IMG/VR virus record: IMGVR_UViG_3300001336_000010
Location: 11,286 to 75,285 of that record
From: a virus
Reading direction: 5' to 3' (one strand)
DNA: 64,000 bases
The position numbers were made by a program, and so were the translations under genes. Position 1 is the stretch's first letter. Every line of letters begins with the position of its first letter. Positions 14,653 to 33,548 of this stretch are shown one piece after another. The notes below the pieces were generated by a model. It had not been told where the DNA came from. It was given only the letters and a program-made list of their open reading frames with translations, and ran no database searches.

Positions 14653-14679
14653 ATGATCCTCTCGGATGGTTTGTGAATA

Positions 14680-15384
14680 TCAGGAGCGTTCGCGTATCTG
14701 TCTCGTGCGGCGATCCTCTCTGGTTTCCCATGGCGCATCGAGTTCTTCTCGACGAGCGTATCGTCGGATCAGGGTCGCCCCGAGGTTTTCCAAAGGAAGC
14801 ATCGTCAGATCCGAAAGGTCGAACTTTCTGATCTGTGTCTGGATCCTTTGAATGGGGGGGCGGGTGATAACCTCCGGTCGACCGACCAGGACTACCGGTC
14901 TGGCCACATACATCGAGAGCTTTCCGATTGTATCGACAAGTGATTGAGCCTTCTGGTCAACCTGGGTCAGAATTAGCGGCTGGATATTGGTGGCATTCAA
15001 TTCCTTTTCCAACTGCGTCATTTTCATTAACCAAGCGGGTCTGATTATTTGCTTAATGGGAGAACTCAGACGGGAAAGATTGGTCAGATAATAGGCCAGG
15101 GACTCCTCTGGGTCTTCAACATAGAAGACCCCTTGACCTGCCGGTTTGGGAATGGGCAGCATCGCTTGGACCAGTGGGTCTGGGAAGATCTGCATGAAGG
15201 TTTCCCAGTGGATCCGATCCGGCACCGGCGCCGCGGCGGGCACCAGGTGGTTGCACATCCCTCCTTTGACCTCGAAGGGACAAGTGCCTTTCAAACCAAC
15301 AAAATTGTTTCCCTTTCTCCCTTGGACCAGCCAGGCCACGGCGCCATCCCAGTGGATTCCGTAGCTCTCGACGAGCTGGGTCAT
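14680..15384 (-). CDS. Hypothetical protein
   Basis: 234-aa ORF, lower GC than flanks. Confidence 0.65.
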   Translation of the reverse strand: MTQLVESYGIHWDGAVAWLVQGRKGNNFVGLKGTCPFEVKGGMCNHLVPAAAPVPDRIHWETFMQIFPDPLVQAMLPIPKPAGQGVFYVEDPEESLAYYLTNLSRLSSPIKQIIRPAWLMKMTQLEKELNATNIQPLILTQVDQKAQSLVDTIGKLSMYVARPVVLVGRPEVITRPPIQRIQTQIRKFDLSDLTMLPLENLGATLIRRYARREELDAPWETREDRRTRQIRERS

Positions 15385-15539
15385 GCTGCCTCCTCTCGAG
15401 CTACAAAGGCCGCGGCGAGTCGCCCAGCCTTTCCCTTGTCATTGAAGGCCATTGATTTCAGAGACACCAGGTAGTGGTGGTGGCCTAGATGGTAGGCCCT
15501 GACAAAAGTCCAGTATCGTTTCAGTTGCGTGTCAACCAT
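15381..15539 (-). CDS. Small hypothetical protein
   Basis: ATG at 15539 preceded by GGAGG; stop overlaps next start. Confidence 0.5.
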   Translation of the reverse strand: MVDTQLKRYWTFVRAYHLGHHHYLVSLKSMAFNDKGKAGRLAAAFVAREEAA

Positions 15540-15918
15540 CGTTGTCCTCCAGTATATTCCCGATCTTTGTCTGAGTGTATGCGGCAATGTCCAGCAAATC
15601 CAGCAACTCGATTTCAGTTGTGCCTTGTTCGACCTTGCGCAACTTTATTACCGACCAGCCGAGATCGTTTGCAGCGTCGGTCACACCAACATCCATCTTG
15701 TGGCGAAAAGTGTAAAGATGTACTCCGATCCTGGTGTGGGTGCGGCTGAGAGATTTCTTGTTCCGCAGGGTGCGAGGGCGGCGTGGGATGTTGTTTTCCA
15801 CCAGGATTTGAGAGACCCTCTTCTCAGAAAGGCCATAGCACCGGGCCAGTTCGTGAAGCTGCTTTCCATCCTGGTAGTCTTGGCAGATGTAGTTGTCCCG
15901 CTCGATGTTGCTCGTCAT
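15532..15918 (-). CDS. Tandem helix-turn-helix protein (Mor-like + XRE-like)
   Basis: LHELARCYGLSEKRVSQIL and DAANDLGWSVIKLRKVEQG. Confidence 0.7.
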   Translation of the reverse strand: MTSNIERDNYICQDYQDGKQLHELARCYGLSEKRVSQILVENNIPRRPRTLRNKKSLSRTHTRIGVHLYTFRHKMDVGVTDAANDLGWSVIKLRKVEQGTTEIELLDLLDIAAYTQTKIGNILEDNDG

Positions 15919-15926
15919 GATCGTCC

Positions 15927-16501
15927 TTATAGAATTCGTTTTACACTTTGTTTTACACTTTTGGATTTTCCCCTTCTTCCTTGGGCTTCCTTCGACATCG
16001 ATTTTCGATGTGCTTGGGCCCTATATTTCTGTGCCATTTCGAGCGTCCGGTGACCGGTGACGGCCTGGATCTCAGCGTCCGTTGCCCCGGTCTCGGCCAG
16101 CTCCTGGGCCGCGTTGTAGCGCCATCCGTGGATGACGTATTTCTCGGCCCCGATCCTGGTTCGGATCTCATGGATCCGGGTCTGGACCGCTCGTTTTGAA
16201 AGCGACCCACTGGTCTTTCTTCCTGGAAAGATCGGTCCCTGCTTCTTTCGAAAGGGAGCCAGGTATTCCTGAAGTCGCCGAGGGCAGTATACTTGGACGA
16301 CCGATAGTAATCGTCGATCAGATTGTTGAACGTGGTTTTCACGTTCTTGTCACCGGTGCCCAACCGGGCTTTCCAGTAGGCAACAGCAAACTCGGGGGTC
16401 TCCGGGTTGTCCGGAAGGCGGACGCTCTGTTCCCCCCTCCGGAAATAGTAGTAGGTCTTCCCTCTGGATTTGACCGGCTGGATGTATTTCAGCTTCACCA
16501 T
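15927..16501 (-). pseudogene. Tyrosine integrase remnant (internal deletion plus frameshift near 16280)
   Basis: N-term KTYYYFRRG..RLPDNPETPEF..AY in one frame; IHGWRYNAA..TGHRTLEMAQKY catalytic end in another; core missing. Confidence 0.85.
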
Positions 16502-16665
16502 GCAAAGCTTTCTCCAGACGTGTCACCAGAGAGGCGCTTCTCCATCTCGCTGACGTTCCACCGCGGGTGCTTGCCCCCAATGAAGGTCGGCGGCGGGACC
16601 GCTCCCGCGTCCACCAGATCCTGGAACTCTTTGATTTTCATATCGAGAAGTTGGGCGGTCATCAT
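16495..16665 (-). CDS. Excisionase/AlpA-like small protein
   Basis: Manual translation MMTAQLLDMKIKEFQDLVDAGAVPPPTFIGGKHPRWNVSEME; directly upstream of integrase. Confidence 0.65.
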   Translation of the reverse strand: MMTAQLLDMKIKEFQDLVDAGAVPPPTFIGGKHPRWNVSEMEKRLSGDTSGESFAW

Positions 16666-16689
16666 GAGATCCTCTCGGATGAGGTGGGG

Positions 16690-16905
16690 TCAGGCGACCT
16701 TTCTGAACGGATAGTCCTCCGGCCGGGACTTGATCAAGGCGTTGAAGCTGCGACCGACTGACGCAGCCGTGACGATCTCGTCGTGCAGTTCCGGGGGCAC
16801 GTTGTCGTAGTGGTATTCGGCCCCGCTGTTGAAGCGGACGCCCAGGACGTTGCCCTCATGGGCCACAGCGTCGATGTTGCTGCTGTCAACTTTCTGATAG
16901 ATCAT
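16690..16905 (-). CDS. KTSC domain protein
   Basis: VDSSNIDAVAH..LGVRFNSGAEYHYDNVP..A.SVGRSFN..IK. Confidence 0.88.
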   Translation of the reverse strand: MIYQKVDSSNIDAVAHEGNVLGVRFNSGAEYHYDNVPPELHDEIVTAASVGRSFNALIKSRPEDYPFRKVA

Positions 16906-17168
16906 GGTTTTCTCCAGTATCCAAGACATTCAGGGTGGGTTTTGTGGCCTCCGAAGTAGTACCCCTCGGGGGCCTTCTCATTCAGGCGACGGACCATGTC
17001 GAGATACAGGTCTACCCCCGCCTGGCTCTCCCACCACGGATCGAACGGCGGAAGGAGAGTTTGCTTGTAGCCGGCCAGGAGCCTGGACAGCTTGTGGACC
17101 ACTGGTCCAAGATCGCCTTCAAACTCGGCGATCAGTTCGTCTGTGAAAACTTGGCGGTCATTTGTCAT
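16902..17168 (-). CDS. Hypothetical protein
   Basis: ORF ending LNEKAPEGYYFGGH...CLGYW; ATG at 17168. Confidence 0.65.
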   Translation of the reverse strand: MTNDRQVFTDELIAEFEGDLGPVVHKLSRLLAGYKQTLLPPFDPWWESQAGVDLYLDMVRRLNEKAPEGYYFGGHKTHPECLGYWRKP

Positions 17169-17271
17169 TTCCAGAAATATACCACAGTCTGACTTGCTCA
17201 CCACACTAATATACTTGATTTCCGGAAATCAAAACACTACCGTCCCGACACCATCTGAGCAAAGGACTACT

Positions 17272-17646
17272 ATGACCCTCACCTTTCAGAAGAGTATGTC
17301 GATGACTGACGAAAACCTGACCTTGAAAGCCGCCGATCTTGTGGCTGCTTACGTCTCTCACAACACGATCAGTGCCTCCGAGCTCCCGGATCTACTGAAC
17401 AAGGTCATCCAGACCTTGCACCAGAGGGGCGAAGCACAAGGCCCCCAGCCGGCGGTGCCGATCGAGGACTCTGTGCATGACGACTATCTGGTCTGTCTGG
17501 AAGACGGAGAGAAGGTGGTCCTCCTCTCCCGGTATTTGAAGTCACATTTTGAAATGACACCAGAGGACTATCGCACCAAGTGGGGGCTCCCAGAGGATTA
17601 CCCGTGGATGAACGCATTCATTTCCGCGACAGAATTGAATTCATAG
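17272..17646 (+). CDS. MucR/Ros family protein, C-terminally truncated and divergent
   Basis: ADLVAAYVSHN..ELPDL, PAVP..SV.DDYLVCLEDG, MTPEDYRTKWGLPEDYP; AAAGGA RBS before ATG 17272. Confidence 0.85.
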   Translation: MTLTFQKSMSMTDENLTLKAADLVAAYVSHNTISASELPDLLNKVIQTLHQRGEAQGPQPAVPIEDSVHDDYLVCLEDGEKVVLLSRYLKSHFEMTPEDYRTKWGLPEDYPWMNAFISATELNS

Positions 17647-17780
17647 AGCTTGACCTGGCCGATGCGCGAAAGCGCATCGACCGAGGTTTCCCCGCCGTTG
17701 TAGGCGTCGACAGCGTCGACACCGAACACGACGGCGATTTCAAGCGGCGAATTTTTCCATTTCCAATTTCTTGGTTGCAT
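17598..17780 (-). CDS. Hypothetical protein, probably truncated where it meets the MucR gene
   Basis: 60-aa ORF whose 3' end overlaps the MucR 3' end. Confidence 0.45.
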   Translation of the reverse strand: MQPRNWKWKNSPLEIAVVFGVDAVDAYNGGETSVDALSRIGQVKLYEFNSVAEMNAFIHG

Positions 17781-18507
17781 AGACCATTTCCTTGTCAGGG
17801 TCTTTTTTCAAAGATCCCTTCGCCCGCAGACCCACCACGCAGGGTGAGGGGTCCAAGAAACGAAGGTCATGATCATCACCGTCGATCACTGGAAATCCGA
17901 ACAGGCTGCCACCGATCTCGTCTGTGATCGCAGCGACGTTCATGCCCGCCCGGAGGACTTCCCTGGCGTAATGCTCGTTATTCTCGTGGAGGGAAAAGGT
18001 GAGGTGGTAATTACTTGGCCGGTCACGAAACATCCTCTTGTGGTGCTTCGTGTAGTCGTAGAACTGCGTGTCGGGGAAGTCACGGAAGATTTCCGGAAAT
18101 TGACGCTCCCACTGCCAGTCCGAGAACACGTTCAGCCGGATGGCCGCGTCCTGGTTCCGGCTGATTTCCTTCCGAAGCTGGGCCATGAATTCGTCCCGGG
18201 CCCGGAAGAACCAGATGGTGCGAAAGATCCGCCCCATCCAGATCGGGTTCGATCCGTCCCTGCGGACGAAATGCTCGGCACCGCGGCCGGAAGTGAAGAT
18301 GCAGTGCTTCGTGCATTCGGGGGAACGGGAGGCGCAAACCTCCCATCCCGATATGTCGGCCGGGGCCAGTGACAGGCCCAGACCTTTCCAGTTTTTCTTG
18401 GATGATTTGCGGAGCTTGACGTTCTCGTTGCTCAGCAACTTTTGGGGGCGCCAGCCCGCAACAAAGCGCGCTTCGGCTTCACGCCGAGCGTTGTCGTAGA
18501 TATCCAT
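17740..18507 (-). CDS. GP88-family (radical-SAM-like Cys cluster) protein
   Basis: SLAPA..VC...SPEC..HC, IRLNVFSD, FYDYTK, NYHLTFS, DGDDHDLRFLD, VGLRAKG. Confidence 0.75.
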   Translation of the reverse strand: MDIYDNARREAEARFVAGWRPQKLLSNENVKLRKSSKKNWKGLGLSLAPADISGWEVCASRSPECTKHCIFTSGRGAEHFVRRDGSNPIWMGRIFRTIWFFRARDEFMAQLRKEISRNQDAAIRLNVFSDWQWERQFPEIFRDFPDTQFYDYTKHHKRMFRDRPSNYHLTFSLHENNEHYAREVLRAGMNVAAITDEIGGSLFGFPVIDGDDHDLRFLDPSPCVVGLRAKGSLKKDPDKEMVYATKKLEMEKFAA

Positions 18508-18535
18508 AAGATCCTCGCGGATGAGTGGTTGGGGT

Positions 18536-18841
18536 TTAGTGGAGCAGCTCGTCGATACGGTCGAGATAGATGGCCATCGCCATTGTGAGATCCTTCAGGT
18601 CGGCCTCGCGGGCCATCTCCCGGATCTGGATGTCCTTGCGTGGGGTGAAGTTGGGCTTCACCTCCACTTCGGGTTCGGCCGGTGCCCCGACCAGATCGGT
18701 CAGGACGTCCAGCGCTGGTTGGACCAGGGGTTGAACCTCCTCGTAGCTGGCCTTGTTGGATTGGGCCGACTTGCTGATCAGCTCCAGGGTTTCGACGATT
18801 TTGGCGACCCGCTTCCGGTTCGTGTCGTTGTCAAAGCTCAT
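18536..18841 (-). CDS. Hypothetical protein
   Basis: ORF in early operon. Confidence 0.6.
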   Translation of the reverse strand: MSFDNDTNRKRVAKIVETLELISKSAQSNKASYEEVQPLVQPALDVLTDLVGAPAEPEVEVKPNFTPRKDIQIREMAREADLKDLTMAMAIYLDRIDELLH

Positions 18842-19199
18842 CGTCGGACACCCAGATCCAGGCCTGGACATACGCCCCCGGATCTTCGCCCTTGGAGACG
18901 ATGGCCGTGCTATCGATCTCCAGTTCTCCGTCCTTCTGGCGATCCATCGCGGCCTTCACATAGGGATCATCCGAGTTGTCGGGGGGAAAGACGTCATGCT
19001 CCACGACCTGGATGCTATCCATGAAGGATAGGCGGTCGCAGAGATGGTCAAAGCCCTCCCGCCAGTCTTCGGGAGCGGGATCGAACTCGAAATACGAGGA
19101 AACCCACTCGTGGGCCAGTTTGTCGGCCTCGGCCGCAGTGTTCACCACGACCGTGTCGACGCCAGAGTCGTCGTTGTATGTGATGGTCCAGATTTTCAT
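18831..19199 (-). CDS. Hypothetical acidic protein
   Basis: 122-aa ORF ending GAYVQAWIWV. Confidence 0.65.
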   Translation of the reverse strand: MKIWTITYNDDSGVDTVVVNTAAEADKLAHEWVSSYFEFDPAPEDWREGFDHLCDRLSFMDSIQVVEHDVFPPDNSDDPYVKAAMDRQKDGELEIDSTAIVSKGEDPGAYVQAWIWVSDDEL

Positions 19200-19438
19200 G
19201 CCATGATACTCCCGGCTGCGCGGGCTGCATCAGCGTAGACTGACAGAGGATGCTCAGCAGTGAACCAGCGGTCGCACAGCCCGAACAGGATGTCGGGGTC
19301 TTCGGGGTCCATTTCAGTGATGAGCCAGGTGGCTGCGCCCCAAGGACAGAAGATCTTCAGGACTGGTTTGTAGTCCTCGCCGGGGGTGGCACCATTCTTG
19401 AGCAGCTGGCGCTCGATTTCCTTGGTGATCAGTTTCAT
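19196..19438 (-). CDS. DUF2958-like protein with apparent internal deletion
   Basis: PVLKIFCPWGAATWLITEMDP..DILFGLCD joined directly to RWFTAEHPLSVYA. Confidence 0.7.
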   Translation of the reverse strand: MKLITKEIERQLLKNGATPGEDYKPVLKIFCPWGAATWLITEMDPEDPDILFGLCDRWFTAEHPLSVYADAARAAGSIMA

Positions 19439-19497
19439 GCTATCCTCCTTCGGATACGGGTTGAATTGGTAGCAAACGTCAGCGAACCGGTTGGGCA

Positions 19498-19749
19498 TCA
19501 GGAGTATTCGAGCTCCTCGATGAAGTGTTCGAGACGGTTGATCGTTTCTTCCCCAAGCCAGGAGACCGCCTCGTCCCTGCGTAGCTTGAGACCGTTCAGG
19601 GTCAGGTGATCGAACTGAGCCGTCACCTGGATCCCTGCGGGCGCGAAGGGCTCCGCGGGGAAGCGTTCGACATCCAGTTCGAAACTGGCTGGAACCCCCT
19701 CGAGGTAGCCGTGTGGGGTGTCGATTTCGACTTCTGCTTCATACTGCAT
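19498..19749 (-). CDS. Hypothetical protein
   Basis: 83-aa ORF in early operon. Confidence 0.6.
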   Translation of the reverse strand: MQYEAEVEIDTPHGYLEGVPASFELDVERFPAEPFAPAGIQVTAQFDHLTLNGLKLRRDEAVSWLGEETINRLEHFIEELEYS

Positions 19750-20074
19750 AGCTGAATAGCTCCCATGTCAGATTGTGGCCGGCCGCAGTCTTGAGCCGCA
19801 GTAGGCGGGTCAGAAACTCGTCCGACTTGAAGTTGACGCTGATCTCGACGCCGGTGACGTCGCAGGGTTCGACCCCCACCATGGTGTGGCCGGAACTCGC
19901 CTGCCCGAAATCTCCGAACTCCCCGGTCACACGGATCGGTTTGCCCGCCAGGGCTTTGATCGGGATCAGGGTTTCCAACCCCTCCTGGTTCAGGATCGAA
20001 ACCGAGTGCTGGTTGGCCCCAGCCGCAGTGACGCCGTAGAAAGTCCCCAAGGGGACGTCGATGTTGCGTTTCAT
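19739..20074 (-). CDS. Hypothetical protein
   Basis: 111-aa ORF with overlaps. Confidence 0.6.
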   Translation of the reverse strand: MKRNIDVPLGTFYGVTAAGANQHSVSILNQEGLETLIPIKALAGKPIRVTGEFGDFGQASSGHTMVGVEPCDVTGVEISVNFKSDEFLTRLLRLKTAAGHNLTWELFSYAV

Positions 20075-20730
20075 GTCAGATGTCCCTTGTTGATGGAGGT
20101 CAGGTATTCCCTAACCATGTCGTGCGGGACGCCCTCCATCATTGGCCTGGAGATCACATCCTCCCAACAGGTTGGGGTATGCTGATCCAGGAGCATTTCA
20201 ACGATCTCCTCGACCTCTTCTGGCGACCAGGGGTCATCGAGATCCGGCATCGGAGGGATCTCGCTGATAGGCGGGGGCTTATGCTCCCCCGTCACCTCAC
20301 GGATTTCAAAATGCAGCGGGTTCACACAAAGCGGAGTGCCGCAGTGGTTGGCCATTTTGAATTCATAGGACGGTTTGTAGAGCAATAAGAAGAGAACGCG
20401 ATGAACAGGGGTCTGTTTTTTCTGCCAGTTGATGACCCCGTATTGCCTTTCGTTGAAGACTTGGGTCACTCGGAGCCCTTGCTTTCGGCAGTTGATTGAC
20501 TTGACCCTGCCATTCGAGGTTCTGGCCATTTTGGCCCCTGTCCAGGGGAGGCAGTCCATCGTCAGATCCTCATGGGGCACCTCCCCCAGGAGGATCTTCT
20601 CCAGGAGGGGGTAGTTGGTCTTCTCGGCCAGTCGTTTGAACAAGGTTTCACGGCGCATCTTCAAGGTTCTCCCACAAGGCAATTTCGGCTGGGTCTGTCG
20701 GGCCGATCCAGTCACTAGCATGAGGCTCAA
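20071..20730 (-). CDS. HNH/His-Cys-like domain protein (degenerate)
   Basis: CLPWTGA..YGVI..VHRV..HCGTPLCVNPLH; start may be 20658. Confidence 0.6.
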   Translation of the reverse strand: MSLMLVTGSARQTQPKLPCGRTLKMRRETLFKRLAEKTNYPLLEKILLGEVPHEDLTMDCLPWTGAKMARTSNGRVKSINCRKQGLRVTQVFNERQYGVINWQKKQTPVHRVLFLLLYKPSYEFKMANHCGTPLCVNPLHFEIREVTGEHKPPPISEIPPMPDLDDPWSPEEVEEIVEMLLDQHTPTCWEDVISRPMMEGVPHDMVREYLTSINKGHLT

Positions 20731-21080
20731 CCCCCCACCGTTTCTGCGAAGACCGCCCCAGGGTAGGCTTCTTCGAGGGTTCGGTGAACTTCCTCAACCT
20801 CGGCCCAGGTCAGGTCTTCCCATTCCTGGAATGGATCCTCGCCGTCGGGGCGCAGAACCACGTCGAAGTGGGTGATTTCTTCACCGACTTGCGCCGCAGT
20901 GTCGCCGTTCATGGCGAAGGTCTCAACCATAAGTTGTTTGCCGAATGCATCGGCCAGCCGGGCCATCTTGCGCATCTCGGCCCGGGCTTGAACCACGCCT
21001 TCGGCGTTGCCCTTGGTCAGCAGGGCTTCAATGACGCTGCACATATCCTCCCAATTGGGCTTGATGTTGATCGTTTTCAT
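20727..21080 (-). CDS. Hypothetical protein
   Basis: 117-aa ORF with RBS. Confidence 0.6.
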   Translation of the reverse strand: MKTINIKPNWEDMCSVIEALLTKGNAEGVVQARAEMRKMARLADAFGKQLMVETFAMNGDTAAQVGEEITHFDVVLRPDGEDPFQEWEDLTWAEVEEVHRTLEEAYPGAVFAETVGG

Positions 21081-21244
21081 GTTTGGATTCCTTCGATTTG
21101 AAACTCACTGTTGTCGACTTCGGTCAGATCGAAGTCTTCAGGGTCGCCATTCTCGATTTGAGCGATGGCATCCTCTGCCGTCTCGGCTTGCACGACGCAG
21201 AGGTAGTAGACGGTCTGAGACCGGGTGAGATTGAAGTCCTTCAT
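21077..21244 (-). CDS. Small acidic hypothetical protein (not in ORF track)
   Basis: MKDFNLTRSQTVYYLCVVQAETAEDAIAQIENG...; fills gap with ATGA overlaps on both sides. Confidence 0.6.
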   Translation of the reverse strand: MKDFNLTRSQTVYYLCVVQAETAEDAIAQIENGDPEDFDLTEVDNSEFQIEGIQT

Positions 21245-21639
21245 GGAGACACCCTCGCGCTGTCGGGCCCCAGACTGACGCTCACCGGCTCATCCTCGCC
21301 CGGGGCGTAACAGTGGACGCGGACCTCGCCGTTCTCGACCTCGATCCAGATCGAGGCCCCGGTTTCGAAAAGGAGATCAACGCGGATGGCCTCTTGCTCG
21401 ATCAAGTATTCGACTGAGGTTCCGTCTTCAGGATCCCAAGACTCGAGGGTTTGCGGGGCCAGTTCGAAATGATCAACGGTGCCTGCAATGAGTTCGGAAA
21501 GATCATCTCCAACCAGAGCCCACTCGTGGTCGTCATTCACGACCTGGAATTCGCCGGGGGACTCAGGGTTGACCTTGGGATCCCGTGGCCCAATTTTGAA
21601 GCCATTATTGTGCAACAGAATTTTGTTCATGTCTGGCAT
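21241..21639 (-). CDS. Hypothetical protein
   Basis: 132-aa acidic ORF. Confidence 0.6.
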   Translation of the reverse strand: MPDMNKILLHNNGFKIGPRDPKVNPESPGEFQVVNDDHEWALVGDDLSELIAGTVDHFELAPQTLESWDPEDGTSVEYLIEQEAIRVDLLFETGASIWIEVENGEVRVHCYAPGEDEPVSVSLGPDSARVSP

Positions 21640-22799: not shown

Positions 22800-23194
22800 A
22801 TGATCTCGAGCCCCCGGAGGTAGCTGGTGTCGATCCACTTCTGCCAGCGGTCGGCGGTGTCAAAACCGTGGCGGGCTTCGTCCATCGTGAGCAGAAGGCC
22901 TTCTTCGTCCCGACAGTATCGGGCATACTGTCCCGTTTCTGCGTTGTAGAGCTCGAAGCCTGCGTTGTAAGCGTCCCCTGCTTCATAGGTCCAGATGAAC
23001 GAGAGTTTGTTCGCCTTCAGAAGGTTGTAGACATCATGGTCGAGCTCCCCGTAATTGACCTCGTCGAAGGTCATGAAACCTTCAACCATGGTCTCTGGTC
23101 CCATGATCTCCTTGATCTGGGAGAGCAGTGCCTCCCAGTGTGGCTTCTGGACCCGCCCGATTACGGACAGTGTGCAGTATGTGCGGTCACCCAT
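22796..23194 (-). CDS. Hypothetical protein
   Basis: ATG 23194 after GGAGGAT RBS. Confidence 0.65.
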   Translation of the reverse strand: MGDRTYCTLSVIGRVQKPHWEALLSQIKEIMGPETMVEGFMTFDEVNYGELDHDVYNLLKANKLSFIWTYEAGDAYNAGFELYNAETGQYARYCRDEEGLLLTMDEARHGFDTADRWQKWIDTSYLRGLEII

Positions 23195-23263
23195 GTGATC
23201 CTCCATTGGATTTGGTCCAGCCACCGAGGTGTGGCGGCTGGATGGTGTCATGCGGGTCGTCCG

Positions 23264-25482: not shown

Positions 25483-26034
25483 TCATGGCACGGGCGCCAC
25501 CTGATCATTCGACGACCTCCACGAAGCCACCGAATGACTGCGTTTGAACGTGTCCATCTGCGCCTCCTGGATAGATGCCAGGATTTCGGTAGGCACCTCT
25601 GGTTGGACCTTCTCGGTCGCCAGAGCATTCATCCACAGCAGTGGATAGTGGTTCTCTTCGAGATACTCGCTGCCACGACACTTCGGGCACCAACCACCAG
25701 TCTGGTCCATGTGGCCACAGTAGCCGCACTTGAAGAACTGCCGGCGATACTCGTTCAGCTCTTCGAGGTTGATGATGTAATGGCCCCAACGACAACGGCG
25801 GTTGATCGACATGTAGTCGGCCCAGTCATGGATCCGGACGCCACAGGTCGTGTTGACCTGGTCATCGAACAAGTGCTGGGGATCGACTTCGAACTCGTGC
25901 GTCCCGGGCTGGTGGAACCCACCGCCCCCATTGCCCCAGACATTGAAGTGCTCGTGAGCAGTGTCGAAAAGATGTCTCGGGTAGTCCGGGTCATCGACTG
26001 TAACTGGGCCGTAGCCCACGACTTGGATTTTCAT
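25483..26034 (-). CDS. Zinc-ribbon-containing hypothetical protein
   Basis: CGYCG..WCPKCRGS; RBS present; C-terminus may be cut by MTase insertion. Confidence 0.65.
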   Translation of the reverse strand: MKIQVVGYGPVTVDDPDYPRHLFDTAHEHFNVWGNGGGGFHQPGTHEFEVDPQHLFDDQVNTTCGVRIHDWADYMSINRRCRWGHYIINLEELNEYRRQFFKCGYCGHMDQTGGWCPKCRGSEYLEENHYPLLWMNALATEKVQPEVPTEILASIQEAQMDTFKRSHSVASWRSSNDQVAPVP

Positions 26035-26103
26035 GCTATCCTCCTACGGATACTTTGGACCTAGCAGTGGCTCGAAAGTCCTGCTAGGTCCGATTTCGGG
26101 AAA

Positions 26104-26507
26104 TCACCAAGAGGAATCGTATTCGAAATCCCACTTGTTTACGGGGAAGAGCTCCAGCACCCGGTCGATCTCGCTGACCGTGTATTCCAGGTCTTTGAGA
26201 TACCACTCGTCGTATTCGGTGGCGCCAAAGAAGAACCCCGACTGGGTCGGGAGGGTCTCTGCGGCCGTCTCTGGGTTGTCCAGAACCCCTTGGCAGACGT
26301 TGCGCAGCTGGGTGAGCTGCTCCCGGCTGACCTGGTGGGGACGATGTCCACGAACCACTTGTGGATGGCGTTGGCCTTGCGCCAGTAGATCGCCTCGCAC
26401 GCGATCGAGGTGATCTTGGCCCCGGCCGGGATCAGATCCGGCAGTTGGGGTTGGTGTTCGTCGAACCAGATGATCCGGTTCGCTTTGAGAAACATGTCAA
26501 GTCCCAT
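26104..26507 (-). pseudogene. Conserved phage protein split by a frameshifting deletion near 26345
   Basis: MGLDMFL..YWRKANAIHKWFVD in one frame, LPTQSGFFFGATEYDEWY..FEYDSSW in another. Confidence 0.75.
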
Positions 26508-26539
26508 TTGATCCTCCTACGGATTTCAGATTTCAGATT

Positions 26540-26764: not shown

Positions 26765-27819
26765 CAGTCGCTCCTCTTCTGGTCAAAGCCCCAATCGACG
26801 ACGACCGGGAAGCGTGGGATCCCGTCCGGGGTCGGGGTGAAGTAGCGGACCGTGGCCCAGACGGGCAGGGGCCCTTCCAGCAGTGCCTTCATCGCCGGCT
26901 GCGTGCCACGCACCCCCGCGCCGAAGACCCGGCCGTCAGGGAGGCTGACGCGGAACCTCTTGGCGAAACCCGACCAGTTGCCGACCCCTTCTTCGACGGC
27001 CACGACCGAGAATTCATCCGAAAGGAATTCCTTGCGCTTCAGGAGCGTCTTGGACCGCTTGCCAGGTTCATATGGCCTGTCGGCCCGGATCATCTGACCT
27101 TCGTAGCCCTCGTCCAGCCATTCGGCATACAAGGCGTCCAGTGTGTCGATGCCGGTGAAGTAGTGTGTGCTGACCTGGTGAACCCCCTGGATACCGCGGA
27201 GCAGCTGCAGTCGATCTTCAAAATTTAAACTCGTGTCGACCAGGTCATAGACGTGGTATTGCACCAGTGCTTCGGCCTCGGCCGTGGCCTTGTCCTTGCG
27301 GACGAGGCTGGTGATCTGGTTGAAATCGTCCTTCAGCTCGTGGTTGTAGAGCTCCCCATCCAGGATCAGGTGCGGCTTGTCCTCGAACAAGCGCGTCAGC
27401 CTGGAGCGGATGTGGGTCAGGGACCTGATCGGCTTTCCAGTGCGGGTCCACAGCCCATCGGCCCGGGCGATGCACCGGATGCCGTCCAGCTTGGGCTGGG
27501 CATACCCTTGGGTGATCGACCCGTCCCAGGTCTTGGCCAGCATCGGCTTGGTGAAGTGGACCTTGTCGATATTCCCGATGTCGTAGAAATAACCCTGGTC
27601 CAGCTTTTTGCGATACTCGGCATTGACCTCGAGCTTCGCTTGCTGCTCGGGGCTGGTCTCGTTGCTCCGTCCGACGTTCTTGGGCCAGGCCTTGGTCCAG
27701 CCAGAGGTGGTAAGTTTGCCGCCTCGCCGGCCCGAGATGCTACGGTAGCGGTCACCGTCGAGTTCCATGGACCACTGGCGGATTTCGCCGGTGGTGTCGC
27801 GCTTGTAGAGCGTCATCAT
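26764..27819 (-). CDS. ATP-dependent DNA ligase
   Basis: QPKLDGIRC, LDGELY, YHVYDL, GYEGQMIR, LLKRK, GIPRFP. Confidence 0.93.
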   Translation of the reverse strand: MMTLYKRDTTGEIRQWSMELDGDRYRSISGRRGGKLTTSGWTKAWPKNVGRSNETSPEQQAKLEVNAEYRKKLDQGYFYDIGNIDKVHFTKPMLAKTWDGSITQGYAQPKLDGIRCIARADGLWTRTGKPIRSLTHIRSRLTRLFEDKPHLILDGELYNHELKDDFNQITSLVRKDKATAEAEALVQYHVYDLVDTSLNFEDRLQLLRGIQGVHQVSTHYFTGIDTLDALYAEWLDEGYEGQMIRADRPYEPGKRSKTLLKRKEFLSDEFSVVAVEEGVGNWSGFAKRFRVSLPDGRVFGAGVRGTQPAMKALLEGPLPVWATVRYFTPTPDGIPRFPVVVDWGFDQKRSD

Positions 27820-28244
27820 TTCTGCAGTTTCCTTGCGATGGTCGAAGCCAGGCTGTAGCTGTCGTTCTGGTTCGGGATGGAGTTCAGGAGGTTCAGTGCG
27901 GACTGCAGCAGCTCGGTTTCAGTCGGCAGGAAGTCGAGCTTCTTGCACATCTCGCGCCAGTCCGGTTTCAGATCGGGGTCGGCGTGGATGAATGCCTTCG
28001 CGGTGTCCCAGATCACGCAGTTTTCCATGAACCATGGGACGAATTCCCAGTCGAAGGCGTAGCCATCCATCCGGTCGCCCTTGTTGGCGATATGGTAGCC
28101 CTCGCTGATCTTGGGGCCGAGCGACACGCAACACAGACGGGCGTTTCCCGTGCCGCCAAGGAGTTCGAAATCATACCCGGACTCGAGCATATGCTCCCAG
28201 GCACACAGGGAAGCCTCAACGTGCGTGGCATAGTAGAACTTCAT
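27816..28244 (-). CDS. Hypothetical protein
   Basis: 142-aa ORF with 4-bp overlaps. Confidence 0.65.
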   Translation of the reverse strand: MKFYYATHVEASLCAWEHMLESGYDFELLGGTGNARLCCVSLGPKISEGYHIANKGDRMDGYAFDWEFVPWFMENCVIWDTAKAFIHADPDLKPDWREMCKKLDFLPTETELLQSALNLLNSIPNQNDSYSLASTIARKLQK

Positions 28245-28852
28245 GCTGCTCTCCTTTCGAGAAAGTTGATGATCCGCCAGAAGCGGTCAGCTTGTGGGCC
28301 ATCCCACATCGCGTTGTGGACCCCGCCATTGCAGAGGAAATTTTCCATCAGGCCGATTTCGTCGAGATCCGGATCTTCGATCCGAGCGGCGCACTCGACC
28401 AGTGTTCCGATCTGGTTGTGATCCCAGTCCTCGATCGGCCCCCAGTCCTCGGGGTCAGGCGAGTAGAAGGAAATGAACCCGGAGCGACTGGTGAACCGCT
28501 CCCGACACACGGCCCGGAAGGCTTCGGCCGGCACCATTTCCTGCAGGCGCTCGATATCCTCGGGGGTCAGGTCCACGAAGATCCGGTCGGTCTCGAAGTT
28601 GTATCCCCGCGGCGAGATCAGGCTTTCGAATTTCCCGTCCAGCCCCAGCCATTCGAGGAACGCCGCCGCATACGCTTTGGCGTATTCCAGCCGCGCCGAC
28701 CCGAAGTCAGCGGCGTCGTAGGCCAGGTTGGTCAGGGTGTCAGAGGCCGGGACGTTCTCCAGTGACCGCTCGATCTCATTGTCGAATTCGGCGTCGTGGA
28801 CCGAGCAGTAGAACCCTGAGAAAGGGATCGTGCTGTTAAATGACGCGGACAT
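28241..28852 (-). CDS. Conserved phage hypothetical protein
   Basis: IPFSGFY.S, SPRGYNFETDRIF, FTSRSGFISFY, WDHNQ. Confidence 0.7.
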   Translation of the reverse strand: MSASFNSTIPFSGFYCSVHDAEFDNEIERSLENVPASDTLTNLAYDAADFGSARLEYAKAYAAAFLEWLGLDGKFESLISPRGYNFETDRIFVDLTPEDIERLQEMVPAEAFRAVCRERFTSRSGFISFYSPDPEDWGPIEDWDHNQIGTLVECAARIEDPDLDEIGLMENFLCNGGVHNAMWDGPQADRFWRIINFLERRAA

Positions 28853-29117
28853 AGTAGGTCACTCCTCTCAGTTCGGCGTAGTGCCAGTCGAATTGGAAAT
28901 ACTCGCGGACCGCCGACTCCCAGTCGATGTGCTTGAAGAGCCAGTTGTCGTCGGTCAGCTCACTGATCGACTTCAGGTAATCAGCCCGCTCGTCTTCAGC
29001 GATGAGTTCGGCCCCGTGGTCCCATTCGCAGTAGGGCCGCAGCTCGTCCCGGAAGGCGATCAGCTCTTCGAGATCGACGTCGTCGTCGATTTCAAGATCG
29101 ATGTGCTTACTGTTCAT
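28836..29117 (-). CDS. Hypothetical acidic protein
   Basis: IDWESAVRE..G.TYYVR. Confidence 0.6.
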   Translation of the reverse strand: MNSKHIDLEIDDDVDLEELIAFRDELRPYCEWDHGAELIAEDERADYLKSISELTDDNWLFKHIDWESAVREYFQFDWHYAELRGVTYYVRVI

Positions 29118-29409
29118 CTTGCGACCTCGCCCAATCCCAGTATCCGAGGCGCGTGTCGCCGTTGGAGACTTCGTAAATCCAGTCGTCGACGGGTTGGTTG
29201 GGGTGGTCGTCCCAGATCGACCCAGAATTGACGACCCGGTCGAAGTAGACCTCCAGTCGCCAGGTATCGATCAGGGACTCCGGGCGGAGGAAGCCGGCAC
29301 CGAAGAGCTGGCGCTGGATCGCGATGCGGAGGTCGATTGCGTCCTCCTCAATATCAGGGGTCGCCTCCATCTCCATGTAGATGTGGGCTTCAAGTGTATG
29401 GATGGGCAT
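29107..29409 (-). CDS. Hypothetical protein
   Basis: DWIYEVSNGDTRLGYWDW; ATG 29409 after GGAGGAT. Confidence 0.65.
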   Translation of the reverse strand: MPIHTLEAHIYMEMEATPDIEEDAIDLRIAIQRQLFGAGFLRPESLIDTWRLEVYFDRVVNSGSIWDDHPNQPVDDWIYEVSNGDTRLGYWDWARSQDEQ

Positions 29410-29586
29410 ATGATCCTCCATCGGATGCAGTGGTTTAGTCCTCGAGAATTTCCCGGACTTTCTTCAGGGCGCGGCGCGTTCCAGTGTTGGGTATCGGCCC
29501 AGCAGGAAAGGTTTCGTGTCGTTCGACACGTGATCCTCCATCGGATGACTTGCTTTTGGTAGTAGCAAGCCGCTAGGCTTGCTGCT

Positions 29587-29817
29587 CTATCGGATATGTG
29601 TCGAAGAGATTGCATGCTTGCAGCACGACCCGGAACTTTTTCGGCTTCGGTGGTAGGAAATGCCATTCGAACCGGGTTCGCGGTTCGGCCTGGAGGAAGT
29701 GCTGGATCCCCTCGGACAGGCTGCGCCACCGATGCAGCAGACCGTGCCACAGTCGGCTTTGGGTTTGTGGTGGGTGGCCTTCAGATACTCGTCGAACGTC
29801 TCGAGGTCCGGTTGCAT
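29587..29817 (-). CDS. Hypothetical protein, possibly a truncated fragment
   Basis: CGTVCCIGG motif then low-quality sequence. Confidence 0.4.
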   Translation of the reverse strand: MQPDLETFDEYLKATHHKPKADCGTVCCIGGAACPRGSSTSSRPNREPGSNGISYHRSRKSSGSCCKHAISSTHIR

Positions 29818-30293
29818 CAGATCAGTCCTTTGCTTCTGAATGAGGTTTCGGTGCCCTTGCCGACGATGATGTGGTCATGGACCACGATCCCGAGCGTCTC
29901 GGCCGCGGCCACGATCTGCTTGGTCATTTCGATGTCAGCAGGGCTGGGTTCGGGATTCCCCGACGGATGGTTGTGGATCAGGATCACCGCCGATGCGTTC
30001 AGCAAAAGTGCAGTACACATGATCTCGCGAGGATAGACCGGGACGTGGTCAACGGTTCCGGTGCCGTGGTGGTGGTCCTTGATCAGCCGGTTGCTGCGGT
30101 CCAGATACAGGACGTGGAAATTCTCGAGGGACGCCTGATAGGTGACCTGGCAGTAATCCAGCAGCCGGTCCCAGGAGGTGATCACTGGCCGCGAGTTGAG
30201 TTCCCGGGCCAGCTCGGCCCGGACTTTTTCCATAAGCTCGGTCACCATGACGTTGCCCCATTTCGAGGCGGTCTCGACGAGTTTCCGGGTCAT
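29817..30293 (-). CDS. RadC-like JAB domain protein
   Basis: ENFHVLYLD..N, GTVDHVPVYPREI, HNHPSGNPEPSPAD, HDHIIVG. Confidence 0.9.
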   Translation of the reverse strand: MTRKLVETASKWGNVMVTELMEKVRAELARELNSRPVITSWDRLLDYCQVTYQASLENFHVLYLDRSNRLIKDHHHGTGTVDHVPVYPREIMCTALLLNASAVILIHNHPSGNPEPSPADIEMTKQIVAAAETLGIVVHDHIIVGKGTETSFRSKGLI

Positions 30294-30586
30294 TTGAGCG
30301 TCTCCAGTCTGAGATCTTCGAGGGCGTATTCGAGGGCGCGCATCTTGGTCAGCACATGCTGGGCTCGGTCCTGCAGCAGATCTTCGGCTGCGGTCTCGAT
30401 CGCCTCGTTCACCATCTCCTCGAAGACCCGGATCGGGATCTGGACGTTGTTGATCCAGACCTCGGCGGTCAGTGTCTCGCTGTTCCGCCACTCGGGGGTG
30501 TCCGCGATCTCGATCGCGGTCTGCCGGTCCTGCATGGCCAGGTGGGCCACCAGGATGCTGCTGATCTTGGATCGGGTCATTGTCAT
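30290..30586 (-). CDS. Hypothetical protein
   Basis: ATG 30586 overlapping upstream stop. Confidence 0.6.
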   Translation of the reverse strand: MTMTRSKISSILVAHLAMQDRQTAIEIADTPEWRNSETLTAEVWINNVQIPIRVFEEMVNEAIETAAEDLLQDRAQHVLTKMRALEYALEDLRLETLK

Positions 30587-31461
30587 TCGAAGATCTCCTC
30601 GATGCAGTCGCTCAGGTCGAAGTCGGGATCGGGCTCCTCGCCGTTGGCCCATTGGGAGAAGATCTCGACCTCAGCCTTCAGGATGAGTTCAATTTTTGAA
30701 CGGAGCTTGGGCGCGATCCGCTTGACGCCGTATTCCTTGCGGACGTCGGAGCGGGAGACGTAGATGTAGCCGGTCTGGCCACTGTCCCCTGGGCAGTGGA
30801 AGCCCGTGGTGTTGAACGCGACCCCGCCGTGCTCGTAGCGGTAGACCGGGAGCCAGATGCAGTCGCTCAGGTCGAAGTCGGGATCGGGCTCCTCGTCGCC
30901 GCAGTGGCGGATTGCCAGGGTGCCGAAGTTGCATGAGAATGTCATCCTTCCATTGGTGTGGGGGGCGAAGCTGCGGGCGTCTTCGAGGCCGTCGCAGTAA
31001 TCGGAGCAGTGGAACGGATCGGTCAGAACCACTTGGTTGTCCGAAGGGCGGCACATCCAGTTGTGCCGGTGGCCATCGAACCAGAATGGTTTCTGGTCTT
31101 CGCGCCGGCCGGTGATGTCCCACATGACCTGCTCAAGCTCGGTCCCGAAATCGACCCCGTCGATATCGTGGTAATCCATCAGGTGCATGAACCCGGTGCG
31201 GGAGACGTGGTCGATCCTGGTCAGCTCCTCCATCACGGCCAGGAATGTGTTCGATCTGAAATCGACATGGACCGCGTGGATGCGAGGCATCCAGGGGTAG
31301 GGGGAGGGGTGCGAGAGGCAGTATCCGGCCCAGTAGAGCCAGCAGTCCCGACTGGCGTTGACGCCGCGTTTGACCACGGTGCCGGGGGTGGTGCCTTTGT
31401 AGACGTGGGCATAGCTGCCGGATCCAGTGCGGTTTTCGGGCTCATAGGTGAAATCAAACAT
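30583..31461 (-). CDS. T7 gp0.7-like protein kinase fused to a fragment of a second phage protein
   Basis: GSGSYAHVY Gly loop, VVKR, AVMEEL, DGHRHNWM catalytic loop, VLTDP; C-terminal part unrelated. Confidence 0.72.
   Translation of the reverse strand: MFDFTYEPENRTGSGSYAHVYKGTTPGTVVKRGVNASRDCWLYWAGYCLSHPSPYPWMPRIHAVHVDFRSNTFLAVMEELTRIDHVSRTGFMHLMDYHDIDGVDFGTELEQVMWDITGRREDQKPFWFDGHRHNWMCRPSDNQVVLTDPFHCSDYCDGLEDARSFAPHTNGRMTFSCNFGTLAIRHCGDEEPDPDFDLSDCIWLPVYRYEHGGVAFNTTGFHCPGDSGQTGYIYVSRSDVRKEYGVKRIAPKLRSKIELILKAEVEIFSQWANGEEPDPDFDLSDCIEEIFE
30601..30895. repeat. 40-bp exact direct repeat (30601-30640, 30856-30895)
   Basis: GATGCAGTCGCTCAGGTCGAAGTCGGGATCGGGCTCCTCG twice (EEPDPDFDLSDCI). Confidence 0.92.
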
Positions 31462-31933
31462 CGATGATCTCCAGATTTTGGCGACACCATGCAGGGAGGC
31501 GCACAAGTCGGCTGGTGGTCTTGGACCTGTAGGTGGCACGGTGGTGGTGGACGAAATCCGTCCCCCAACCCGGTGCGGGTTCGGGGATGCGGATGGTCTG
31601 GCCGGGTTTGGGCTTGGGTCGGTTGTTCCAGGTGCGGGACCGTTCGCGGAACTCGACGGCATGCTCGTTGTGCGGCGGCGGGGCCAGTTTGAGGATGGTC
31701 GGGGGGCACCGGCAGTATTGCGGGGCCGGCCCCATGGTCTCGTCCATGTCCTTGTACATGAACTCGCCGCGGTATCGCTGGGTCAGGATCACGATGATCG
31801 GGAGGTCAGTAGCCGCGGCGAACCAGACGCTGCCCACCTTTTGCAGGCGCAGCAGATCGTGGTTGACGAAGAGGGTCTCGATGAATGCCTTCTCATCGAA
31901 GCAGTAGGGAATGTTGAAACCAGTCCAGCCCAT
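31454..31933 (-). CDS. DUF6927-like protein
   Basis: MGW..., YKDMDETMGP..CP..IL.L..HAVEFRER. Confidence 0.65.
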   Translation of the reverse strand: MGWTGFNIPYCFDEKAFIETLFVNHDLLRLQKVGSVWFAAATDLPIIVILTQRYRGEFMYKDMDETMGPAPQYCRCPPTILKLAPPPHNEHAVEFRERSRTWNNRPKPKPGQTIRIPEPAPGWGTDFVHHHRATYRSKTTSRLVRLPAWCRQNLEIIDV

Positions 31934-31934
31934 G

Positions 31935-32354
31935 TCAGTACTCCGCTCTGGTGTTGACGTCTTCGACGGCGTGGATGTCGTCGAGGTTGATCTCGCTGAT
32001 CACCTCGCCCGTGGCGTCGATCGCGATCGCAGCTCCCGTGAGGTAGCGGAGCTTCTCGTTTCCGACTTCGATCCAGACGAACAGCCCGCCGGGGTCGTCG
32101 GCGAAGGCCAGGTGGACGACGTCCAGCAGGCTCAGGTCTTCGTCTTCGGTGTAGGAGTGGCCGAGGATGCCGAGGAAGTCGGCATCCTCGGCTTCGGGCA
32201 TAATGGTCGGGGTGCCATAGGGGTCGACACTGAGGATGCAGTTCAGATCGCCCTTGCTCGGGGTCTGGATCGGGAAGAGCATTTGCAGTGCGTCAAGCTT
32301 GACGGGATCGAACCGGACATAGTTCGACCGGGCAGTTGCGTCGTAGTTGGCCAT
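31935..32354 (-). CDS. Hypothetical protein
   Basis: MANY.ATARSNY..EVGNEKLRYL.G.A. Confidence 0.7.
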   Translation of the reverse strand: MANYDATARSNYVRFDPVKLDALQMLFPIQTPSKGDLNCILSVDPYGTPTIMPEAEDADFLGILGHSYTEDEDLSLLDVVHLAFADDPGGLFVWIEVGNEKLRYLTGAAIAIDATGEVISEINLDDIHAVEDVNTRAEY

Positions 32355-32358
32355 GGGA

Positions 32359-32667
32359 TCAATCCTCCGCTTGCTGTGTGGGGGTAGTCGGGTGGCTCAG
32401 GTAGGGTGGCCTACGAATGAGCGAGATGGCTCTGTGCGAGCCTTTCCGGGCCTCCGACGGATAGGGTTCCTGCAGTCCACGGTTCCAGACGTTGACGTCG
32501 TCATTCATCCACGGTTCGAAATACCCGTCGGCCATGAGGTGGCCGATAGCGCAGGCGTGGCCTTCGGGGGTACGGTAGACGCAGTTGTTGTGGTCGCCCT
32601 TTGCGAGGGCGTTCTGGGTAATGACGCCAGTCACGGCGATGTCGAAGAACTTCTGGAATTTATGCAT
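32359..32667 (-). CDS. Hypothetical protein (C-terminus runs into repeat)
   Basis: CVYRTPEGHACAIGHL motif. Confidence 0.55.
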   Translation of the reverse strand: MHKFQKFFDIAVTGVITQNALAKGDHNNCVYRTPEGHACAIGHLMADGYFEPWMNDDVNVWNRGLQEPYPSEARKGSHRAISLIRRPPYLSHPTTPTQQAED

Positions 32668-32882
32668 CAGATTACTCCCATCATGATGGCTGCAGATTGG
32701 CAGGAATTGGTGCCACAGGACTCGCACCATCCAGCGTCCTGATCGGGTTCGAACTCGGTCGAGTAGTCGCAGTCTTCGTTCATGCAGATTGCTGGCATGA
32801 CTCCGTCGAAAACGTAGTCTTCGACCATTTCTTCGGGGGTGGCGTAGCCCCAGTCGCGGGCCAGGGTGTTCAGTTTGTCCAT
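32667..32882 (-). CDS. Small zinc-finger-like protein
   Basis: CMNEDC..EPDQDAGWCESCGT. Confidence 0.7.
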   Translation of the reverse strand: MDKLNTLARDWGYATPEEMVEDYVFDGVMPAICMNEDCDYSTEFEPDQDAGWCESCGTNSCQSAAIMMGVI

Positions 32883-32938
32883 GGGATCAATCCTCCGCTT
32901 GCTGTGTGGGGGTAGTCGGGTGGCTCAGGTAGGGTGGC

Positions 32939-33319
32939 CTACGAATGGGTGATGACGTTCTCAGAGAGGCGTTTCATGGTCGCCTCGAGATCGGGCAGTA
33001 TCGGGGAGCCGATTTCACGGCCGGTTTCGATGAGATCAGCCAGGTTGCGCTGGAAGTCGCGTTCACGGGCGGCGAGGGGCGTTTCCTGGTCGAGAACCCA
33101 CTGACGCAAGGTTTCGAGGGTCTCAGGGATCCTCTCGCAATCGAGGGCGTATAGGACGGGGCTGCGGATCCGCTTGTTGTTGCGGTCCATCTCGATACTG
33201 ATGGCGAAGGGCTTGCCACAGAAGTTGAGGTAGGGGGAGGTCTCGACGCGCTTGAAGCCCAGCTCTACGGCGAGGGTTTCGAGGGCCTGGACACGGTTGA
33301 GTAGCGTTTGAAGTTCCAT
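32939..33319 (-). CDS. Hypothetical protein, first gene of leftward early operon
   Basis: ATG 33319 after GGAGGAT. Confidence 0.7.
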   Translation of the reverse strand: MELQTLLNRVQALETLAVELGFKRVETSPYLNFCGKPFAISIEMDRNNKRIRSPVLYALDCERIPETLETLRQWVLDQETPLAARERDFQRNLADLIETGREIGSPILPDLEATMKRLSENVITHS

Positions 33320-33389
33320 GATATCCTCCATCGGATGGTTAGATTTGCAGTGCAAGTTTTGCAGTGCGCGATTGGCGGGGGTGGTGTCA

Positions 33390-33480: not shown

Positions 33481-33548
33481 TTCGATCATTTCTGGAAATC
33501 GAACAGAGGGTTGTAGGGTTGTAGGGTCGGGTTCGAAGGCGAAGTCTC

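Follow-up and report, generated by a model that had tools for sequence, protein, structure and literature searches.

Why should a phage set the same short inverted repeat over the ribosome-binding sites of some ten early genes of different families? The question is raised by a window of 64,000 nt (the whole stretch of DNA analyzed here, bases 11286-75285 of the 75,285-bp virus record IMGVR_UViG_3300001336_000010, which is rated 92% complete; window G+C content 58.5%). In this motif, ATCC, a loop of 4-6 nt and GGAT stand just ahead of the start codon, over the Shine-Dalgarno (SD) sequence. The motif is real, under selection and specific to early genes, and it belongs to a known but unexplained kind of element, the start-associated sequence (SAS). 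Our preferred reading, to which we give about an even chance of being right, is that it is a lineage-specific SAS that acts in cis as a self-contained ribosome-binding cassette on early mRNA.

The pattern ATCCN{4,6}GGATNNNATG matches the window 11 times, against a mean of 0.05 (maximum 2) in 100 shuffles. Over the whole record, there are 10 reverse-strand matches and one forward-strand match, and a reversed-pattern control gives none on either strand; the 11 kb of the record beyond the window hold no additional copies. Ten SD-bearing copies in the window, one of them ahead of a GTG, all lie on the - strand and each stands 3 nt before its start codon, so that the pattern search agrees with the ten positions listed in a first-pass annotation made from the sequence alone. 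The + strand match (16153-16172) looks like chance, because it lies opposite an early open reading frame (ORF) and lacks an SD-like loop. Another - strand match, at 35849-35868, had not been listed before; it is a reversed copy, with the loop TCTATC and neither GGAG nor GAGG in the loop. Scans of the window for tRNAs and Rfam families found nothing, and a scan of positions 14000-33999 for sigma-70 promoters and intrinsic terminators returned fewer sites than shuffles did, none of them tied to the motif. An exact scan of viral contigs for ATCCGNNGGAGGATNNNATG gave at least 112 stretches, one contig holding two, and was useless as a definition of the family, nearly all matches being single ones in unrelated contigs.

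For comparison, we used two related records, G001 (78.8 kb, with terminal repeats; helicase 73% identical to that of the window) and G002 (76.8 kb; helicase 57% identical), which with the record of the window make up the three full records referred to below. Early and replication genes occupy the - strand from ∼38861 leftwards, and late genes (terminase, portal, capsid, tail) the + strand from 38997. Genes were called in the three full records with our own crude codon-score caller. Where the upstream gap was at least 15 nt, the motif was found at 22 of 91 early-strand genes and at none of 52 late-strand genes (Fisher p = 2e-5), which bears out the earlier observation that structural genes lack it; where the gap was shorter or absent, it was found at one of 128 early-strand genes and at 0 of 49 on the late strand. 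Both gap classes together therefore mark the motif as a start signal of early genes that are not overlap-coupled to the preceding gene. These gene-based counts are lower bounds, because the caller missed window sites 26505 and 29527, one site in G001 and three in G002. Independently of any gene call, ATCC stands 4-6 nt upstream of GGATNNNATG at 27 of 46 early-strand and one of 17 late-strand occurrences. Called early-strand starts with GGAT at -7 and no 5′ arm number zero in the record of the window, five in G001 and one in G002, and the G001 exceptions include a compensated TTCC-GGAA site and an AUCU-GGAU wobble variant.

The copy closest to the start of the early arm (33317..33336, ATCC-GATGGA-GGAT-ATC-ATG) heads a 126-aa ORF (32939-33319), and the same loop recurs at 29407..29426 (ATCC-GATGGA-GGAT-CAT-ATG), ahead of a 100-aa ORF (29107-29409), and at 29527..29546 (ATCC-GATGGA-GGAT-CAC-GTG). 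The ORF behind this last copy, previously noted as a short GTG ORF, is 21 codons long; its GTG (29527-29529) lies within a local hairpin, and stem-loops occupy the flanks. At the three GATGGA sites, the loop contains an ATG in frame with the real start and 12 nt upstream of it (ATG GAG GAT NNN ATG); this ATG has no SD of its own, and the other loop types contain none. Two copies have the loop GTAGGA: one at 26505..26524 (ATCC-GTAGGA-GGAT-CAA-ATG), which heads a 122-aa ORF (26139-26507) with a neutral coding score (about zero), and one at 26032..26051 (ATCC-GTAGGA-GGAT-AGC-ATG), which heads a 183-aa ORF (25483-26034). The copy at 23192..23211 (ATCC-AATGGA-GGAT-CAC-ATG) heads a 132-aa ORF (22796-23194) and has a 9-bp stem-loop immediately upstream, and that at 19436..19455 (ATCC-GAAGGA-GGAT-AGC-ATG) heads a DUF2958 ORF (19196-19438), for which an in-frame alternative start at 19498 would place the motif within the coding sequence. 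The remaining three have tetraloops: 18505..18522 (ATCC-GCGA-GGAT-CTT-ATG) heads a GP88-family gene (17740-18507) whose G001 ortholog carries ATCC-GAGA-GGAT; 16663..16680 (ATCC-GAGA-GGAT-CTC-ATG) follows the stop of the KTSC gene by 9 nt and heads a 56-aa ORF (16495-16665) whose former label "xis-like" finds no support in Pfam or PHROGs; and 14650..14667 (ATCC-GAGA-GGAT-CAT-ATG), with an upstream stop 12 nt before ATCC, heads an SNF2-type helicase (13216-14652) whose orthologous sites in relatives keep the arms. The rule that loops are GNRA tetraloops or GGA-ending hexaloops thus holds in the window (GAGA twice, GCGA, GATGGA three times, GTAGGA twice, GAAGGA and AATGGA) and breaks down in relatives, where GACA, AAGA, GATA, GAGGA, GACAGA, AGATGA and GATTGA also occur.

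By its proteins, the phage is a JWF-like siphophage: protein searches place its terminase and helicase at 48-51% identity to those of Achromobacter phage JWF, with Caulobacter phage Seuss and Xylophilus phage Lumi more distant, and 7 kb of the window used as query found no near-identity DNA match among GenBank phages. JWF itself has no match to the motif. All 12 exact matches in G001 fall on the early strand, as do the seven motif-like sites of G002, of which two have a 3′ arm that reads GGAA. An alignment of 42 sites gives the consensus ATCCGNNGGAGGAT, with a spacer to the start of 3 nt in 41 sites and 4 nt in one, and an ATG start in 41. A helicase alignment, used to scan metagenomes, retrieved 67 loci; among the 19 in which the helicase start was inspected, the motif was present in eight (seven distinct sequences, helicase 50-75% identical), 3-4 nt from the start, and absent in 11. 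Across relatives, the loop of the helicase site is GAGA, GGAA, GTGA, AAGA, GATA or AGATGA, and the spacer and the upstream 12 nt vary too, while every one retains ATCC and only G002 departs from GGAT; likewise, the 183-aa gene has the loop GTAGGA in the window and its G002 homolog has ATCC-GTGA-GGAT. Loop, spacer, and leader change and the arms are kept at orthologous genes, which argues for purifying selection on the arms and not on loop sequence or length. By this comparison, selection has kept the motif in relatives down to ∼50% helicase identity, and even at deep divergence it still accompanies core genes (helicase, GP88).

The next question is whether the two arms pair. In a first alignment of 38 sites, chosen by the ATCC pattern, three pairs were invariant and the outer A-U pair was broken twice. 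A covariance model built from this alignment and searched over 43 related loci recovered two new sites in the locus L143, both TTCC-loop-GGAA, one before PolA and the other before a helix-turn-helix regulator. A third compensated site, TTCC-GCTGGA-GGAA, precedes a 228-aa gene in G001; the genes behind the three TTCC...GGAA sites, which lie in two genomes, are mutually non-homologous. At another G001 site, AUCU-AGGA-GGAU, C has changed to U and a wobble pair is retained. In the 42-site alignment, the outer pair is A-U in 37 sites, U-A in three and unpaired in two, the second is U-A in 42, the third C-G in 42, and the inner pair C-G in 41 and U-G in one; 98.8% of the cells are paired, a level that only one of 500 shuffles attained. 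Of the four pairs, the outer one alone does not involve the GGA of the SD, and it is this pair that covaries, while the three inner pairs are fixed because they use that GGA, which cannot change. The predicted energy of the hairpin is -2.4 to -3.2 kcal/mol, and when 29 sites were folded in a 70-nt context, 22 gave it a predicted pair probability of 0.5 or more. A fifth, flanking pair (the base before ATCC with the base after GGAT) forms in 10 of 38 sites and is weak.

ATCC is unable to pair with the anti-SD, given the 16S sequence, and the idea that the 5′ arm itself pairs with the tail of 16S was rejected on geometry. The arm is invariant save for the three compensated TTCC sites and the single ATCT wobble variant, a conservation stricter than pairing to the 16S 3′ end would require. 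The first-pass annotation had staked its proposal on a 5′ arm that is conserved and covaries and on a motif that is not equally common before late genes. The arms are kept at helicase orthologs, the one free position covaries with its partner, and the motif is absent from late genes; the proposal therefore survives on these points.

The motif comes with a leader of unusual composition. In the 38 sites, C makes up 41%, A 30%, and G just 9% of the 12 nt preceding ATCC, where the genomes have 28-29% G, and the leaders of motif genes (C 45%, G 11%) stand apart from those of other early genes (29% and 20%) and of late genes (27% and 23%); the same 12-nt stretch before long-spacer early or late genes that lack the motif is not G-poor. 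The leader often opens with TAACC, of which TAA is the stop of the upstream gene. In the window, the distance from that stop to ATCC is 9-15 nt at four sites and 42-270 nt at four others, and two sites have no called upstream ORF nearby.

Taken as a cis-acting cassette, the element often runs from the upstream UAA through a C-rich, G-poor leader to 5′-AUCC, a loop of 4-6 nt (usually G-N-N-A or G-N-N-G-G-A), GGAU-3′, 3 nt and AUG. The GGA of the 3′ arm belongs to the gene's own SD, and UCC with one further base in the 5′ arm would act as an internal anti-SD, its pairing partner, so the hairpin would have to open before the 30S subunit can pair. From this layout we infer an effect on initiation in cis, which may take one of three forms. 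The weak hairpin (∼-3 kcal/mol) may insulate starts from their context, giving unrelated, swapped-in early genes one standard start-site fold; where the upstream stop is 9-15 nt away (four of the ten window sites), it may tie initiation in part to termination of the upstream ORF; or the shared sequence may serve as a common handle for the joint shut-off of motif genes. Should the motif prove to insulate starts from their context or to co-regulate them, this would account for the way in which phages plug unrelated accessory genes into early operons.

Several observations weigh against this cis-acting reading. Two G002 sites combine ATCC with GGAA, an uncompensated break, and three of the four pairs are silent on pairing because they never vary. 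The covariation amounts to three cells at one pair, in sites chosen with knowledge of the structure, two of them through a structure-aware model. A stem of ∼-3 kcal/mol is weak and should barely lower initiation at a strong SD; work by de Smit and van Duin on hairpins at ribosome-binding sites reportedly gives the basis for expecting so little effect. Coupling cannot be the general role, because six of the ten window sites are at least 42 nt from an upstream ORF or have none called. Strict conservation of the sequence of both arms would, moreover, fit a sequence-specific reader equally well. A few reporter mutants would put the choice between structure and sequence reader to a direct test.

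As an element of a known kind, the motif can be set beside earlier cases. A 2011 report on Cluster K mycobacteriophages (Pope et al., PMC3203893) describes SASs with the consensus GGGATAGGAGCCC, present in 11-19 copies per genome with no function known, in the non-structural half only, 3-7 bp before mostly ATG starts and conserved beyond the need of 16S pairing; their role is still termed unverified in a 2025 survey (PMC12699233). The regulon had been called undescribed, which is too strong for the kind of element in view of the 2011 report; our literature search found no description of the motif itself, or of repeated start boxes in JWF-like phages, a result that is not proof of absence. The two elements share several traits: each is a short multicopy box over the ribosome-binding site, a few bases ahead of starts that are mostly ATG; each occurs in the non-structural arm alone, before genes of different families, with symmetric outer bases (GGG...CCC in Cluster K); and each keeps one orientation, save for one reversed copy that stands apart from any gene start, and is conserved beyond 16S pairing. 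In the three full records, we count 10, 12, and seven copies with this placement, in the non-structural arm only and before diverse gene families. The differences are as clear: the sequence is unrelated, with no match to GGGATAGGAGCCC at ≤2 mismatches, and the phage lineage is another, JWF-like one; here the SD contributes its GGA to the 3′ side of the stem and not to the loop; the loop is variable at 4-6 nt and one pair covaries; and a C-rich leader takes the place of the 17-bp inverted repeats of the extended SAS. The motif is thus best regarded as an analogue of the SAS and not a homologue.

A report on Cluster EF Microbacterium phages (Jacobs-Sera et al. 2020, PMC7302621) describes an SAS with the consensus GGGAAAGGACCCC and no known role. 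Shared with it are some ten copies per genome at ribosome-binding-site positions of non-structural genes and symmetric outer bases; sequence and host phylum differ, and Cluster EF has an upstream GTAGAG-centred element. The present case is cleaner than the earlier ones, in that a 4-bp hairpin has the SD as its 3′ arm, a variable loop length and one covarying pair, and it extends the phenomenon beyond actinobacteriophages.

Among the alternatives, the one that survives best, although we consider it unlikely, is that a dedicated phage or host protein binds or cuts the motif and so switches early genes jointly off or on; it could be a repressor in the manner of RegA or the MS2 coat protein, a RegB-type RNase, or a relative of CsrA. 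Both arms are invariant over 50-75% helicase identity, more than structure alone needs, but for three of the pairs this invariance is already accounted for by the SD. The confinement of the motif to the early arm would suit such a reader, as would the precedent of T4, whose factors act on many early ribosome-binding sites according to two reports (PMC3014915, PMC1702504), with one factor serving the start regions of many early mRNAs and a GGA core in the RegB sites. In detail, however, the T4 targets described there are of another make. The site of RegB with S1 is a single-stranded 11-nt element, GGA followed by A-rich sequence (PMC1702504), whereas the GGA here is predicted to be paired and the sequence downstream is of the UCAU/UAUC type; the RegA operator is A+U-rich, unstructured and lies over the AUG (PMC3014915), whereas the motif is G+C-rich and self-pairing. 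The analogy with RegB drawn in the first-pass annotation thus fits poorly.

The analogy with CsrA fits part of the sites. CsrA/RsmA binds short hairpins that present GGA in the loop at SD sites. At 16 of the 18 hexaloop sites (all but GACAGA and AGATGA), GGA is indeed displayed in the loop, but 19 tetraloop sites hold the GGA of the SD in the 3′ arm of the stem, and only one of these (loop GGAA) has GGA in the loop as well. To our knowledge, Alphaproteobacteria mostly lack CsrA. No match to the CsrA family (PF02599) was found in the three phage records, with a control that was positive in three of 14 known genomes; the RegB (PF10715) and RegA (PF01818) families likewise gave no match in the three full records, blanks that are weak because these controls were positive nowhere. 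Nor did a Pfam search of 58 early-arm proteins and one 42-aa + strand ORF, all from the record of the window, find an RNA-binding or RNase family specific to motif-bearing phages. The KTSC protein, put forward earlier as a candidate binder, was rejected on co-occurrence, since a tblastn search matches its gene also in JWF, which is without the motif. Of the regulon as first proposed, the part that stands is a motif that is non-random, linked to strand and start, early-only and selected; the RNA-binding repressor or RNase meant to read it in trans was not found among the families searched.

Less probable again is an RNA reader. The reversed copy (35852..35870, -) would give, on the early-strand RNA, GGAUCC-UCUAUC-GGAUGCC, which is complementary to the motif and lies in the 3′ untranslated region (3′UTR) of the PrimPol gene, 73 nt past its stop. 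A terminator-like hairpin, GGGGTGTCC-GAAAT-GGACACCCC followed by CTTAATTAT (35811..35833, -), comes 21 nt after it. We therefore considered whether the copy is the seed of an early antisense RNA that, through loop-loop contact and then pairing over 14-20 nt, blocks motif-bearing starts. Only one early-strand match to the reverse-complement consensus at ≤1 mismatch is found, where ∼0.012 would be expected by our own arithmetic, and it sits between a 12-bp hairpin and the terminator-like one, in a 147-nt stretch much more strongly structured than its shuffles (z = -4.46). The copy is complementary to site 29407 at 18 of 20 positions, and the mean predicted duplex energy is -25.6 kcal/mol for nine motif starts against -15.9 (standard deviation 3.6) for 90 others, a difference that arises partly by construction; tetraloop sites pair less well. 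The 42-codon ORF behind the reversed copy scores as non-coding, and Cluster K phages also carry one reversed SAS unlinked to a gene start, according to PMC3203893.

Against this, the G001 PrimPol 3′UTR has no anti-motif, and motif starts there pair no better than others (-16.8 versus -17.9). G001 and G002 hold only 2-mismatch matches to the reversed consensus, none of them in the PrimPol 3′UTR and one (G001 73975) inside a called gene. A search for further PrimPol-bearing relatives returned G001 alone, and an inverted duplication may have left the copy behind as a relic. Because G001 and G002 have nothing comparable, we hold an RNA-RNA switch, in which an "anti-start" mini-hairpin in the 3′UTR of PrimPol, the first large early gene, complements the start-site hairpins in both loop and arms, docks on some ten ribosome-binding sites by loop-loop contact and silences them together, to be a long shot; were it true, its logic could explain the lone reversed SAS copies of mycobacteriophages. 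As a separate observation, G001 has, just downstream of PrimPol (3673-6117, -), three tandem CCTCTTCGGACCTCAG copies with a terminator-like hairpin and a run of T behind them, at the position that the reversed copy takes in the window.

It is also improbable, to a slightly greater degree, that the ATCC half has no function of its own and that the cassette merely spreads by duplication or recombination at gene junctions, marking swaps of accessory genes. Motif genes do differ between relatives. When the nine window motif genes compared were searched against G001, reciprocal best matches were found only for the helicase and GP88, both motif-bearing there, and seven had no G001 homolog; two G001 motif genes have window orthologs that carry other start signals. 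Thus, the motif heads unrelated accessory genes together with two core genes and marks mosaic junctions. Identical cassettes recur within one genome, and JWF has repeated early leaders of its own, different from these. A neutral hitch-hiker would, however, have decayed at such divergence, whereas 10 distinct lineages retain the arms ahead of the orthologous helicase though loop, spacer, and leader all change, and compensated TTCC-GGAA variants occur. Finally, we rate it as highly improbable that ATCC...GGAT serves as a palindromic DNA operator, bound by a dimeric regulator of early transcription. The arms do form a perfect inverted repeat limited to one genome arm, but the half-site spacing varies (4, 5 or 6 bp), the motif sits a constant 3 nt from the start codon, its loop is always oriented the same way toward the gene, TTCC-GGAA and ATCC-GGAT copies stand side by side in one genome, and no promoter-like signal is present at the sites.

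The early arm encodes a PrimPol-D5 primase-helicase (35941-38388, -) and, also on the - strand, DNA ligase, RadC, a C5 methylase, GP88, KTSC, the SNF2 helicase, PolA, a GapR-like protein, and ribonucleotide reductase. The ORF at 30583-31461 (-), formerly labeled a T7 gp0.7-like kinase, matched no Pfam family at E ≤0.01. The GapR-like DNA-binding protein (9059-9316, -; E = 2e-32) and a ROS/MucR regulator (17272-17646, +; E = 4e-30) belong to families typical of Alphaproteobacteria, and these two genes hint that the host is probably an alphaproteobacterium.

Other repeats near starts were seen in the window and its relatives. An exact 33-nt repeat ending in GCGGAGGATTGATCCC-ATG, at 32352-32384 and 32880-32912 (-), heads the genes 31935-32354 and 32667-32882; in it, ATCC comes after the SD and not before. 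The gene at 32667-32882 has G001 and G002 orthologs that are 72% identical, and the G001 ortholog carries a normal motif. The PolA gene of G001 (50344-52881, -) starts with CCTC-CCAG-GAGG-ACTGT-ATG, a different 4-bp self-pairing of the SD; PolA of L143 has the TTCC-GCGA-GGAA variant, and PolA of the window has neither self-pairing form. In JWF 40000-81541 (L001), the palindrome GTTCG-TWA-CGAAC occurs ten times against 0.03 expected (for example, at 28997-29009, 31203-31215, 35022-35034, 37580-37592, and 41391-41403 of L001), several copies lying immediately before the ribosome-binding sites of the earliest genes, and a CA-rich leader, CAGCACACAGACGAAGGA-N5-ATG, is repeated as well. The leaders peculiar to JWF suggest that the family as a whole tends to have start-linked repeats, each lineage with its own sequence. 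The window also holds nine exact ATTTC-NN-GAAAT palindromes (ATTTCNNGAAAT), at 13219, 17167, 17218, 18089, 26093, 33488, 33588, 33778, and 38930, which we treated as unrelated to the motif system, only that at 26093 being near a motif site; three of them cluster in the gene-free stretch 33400-33800.

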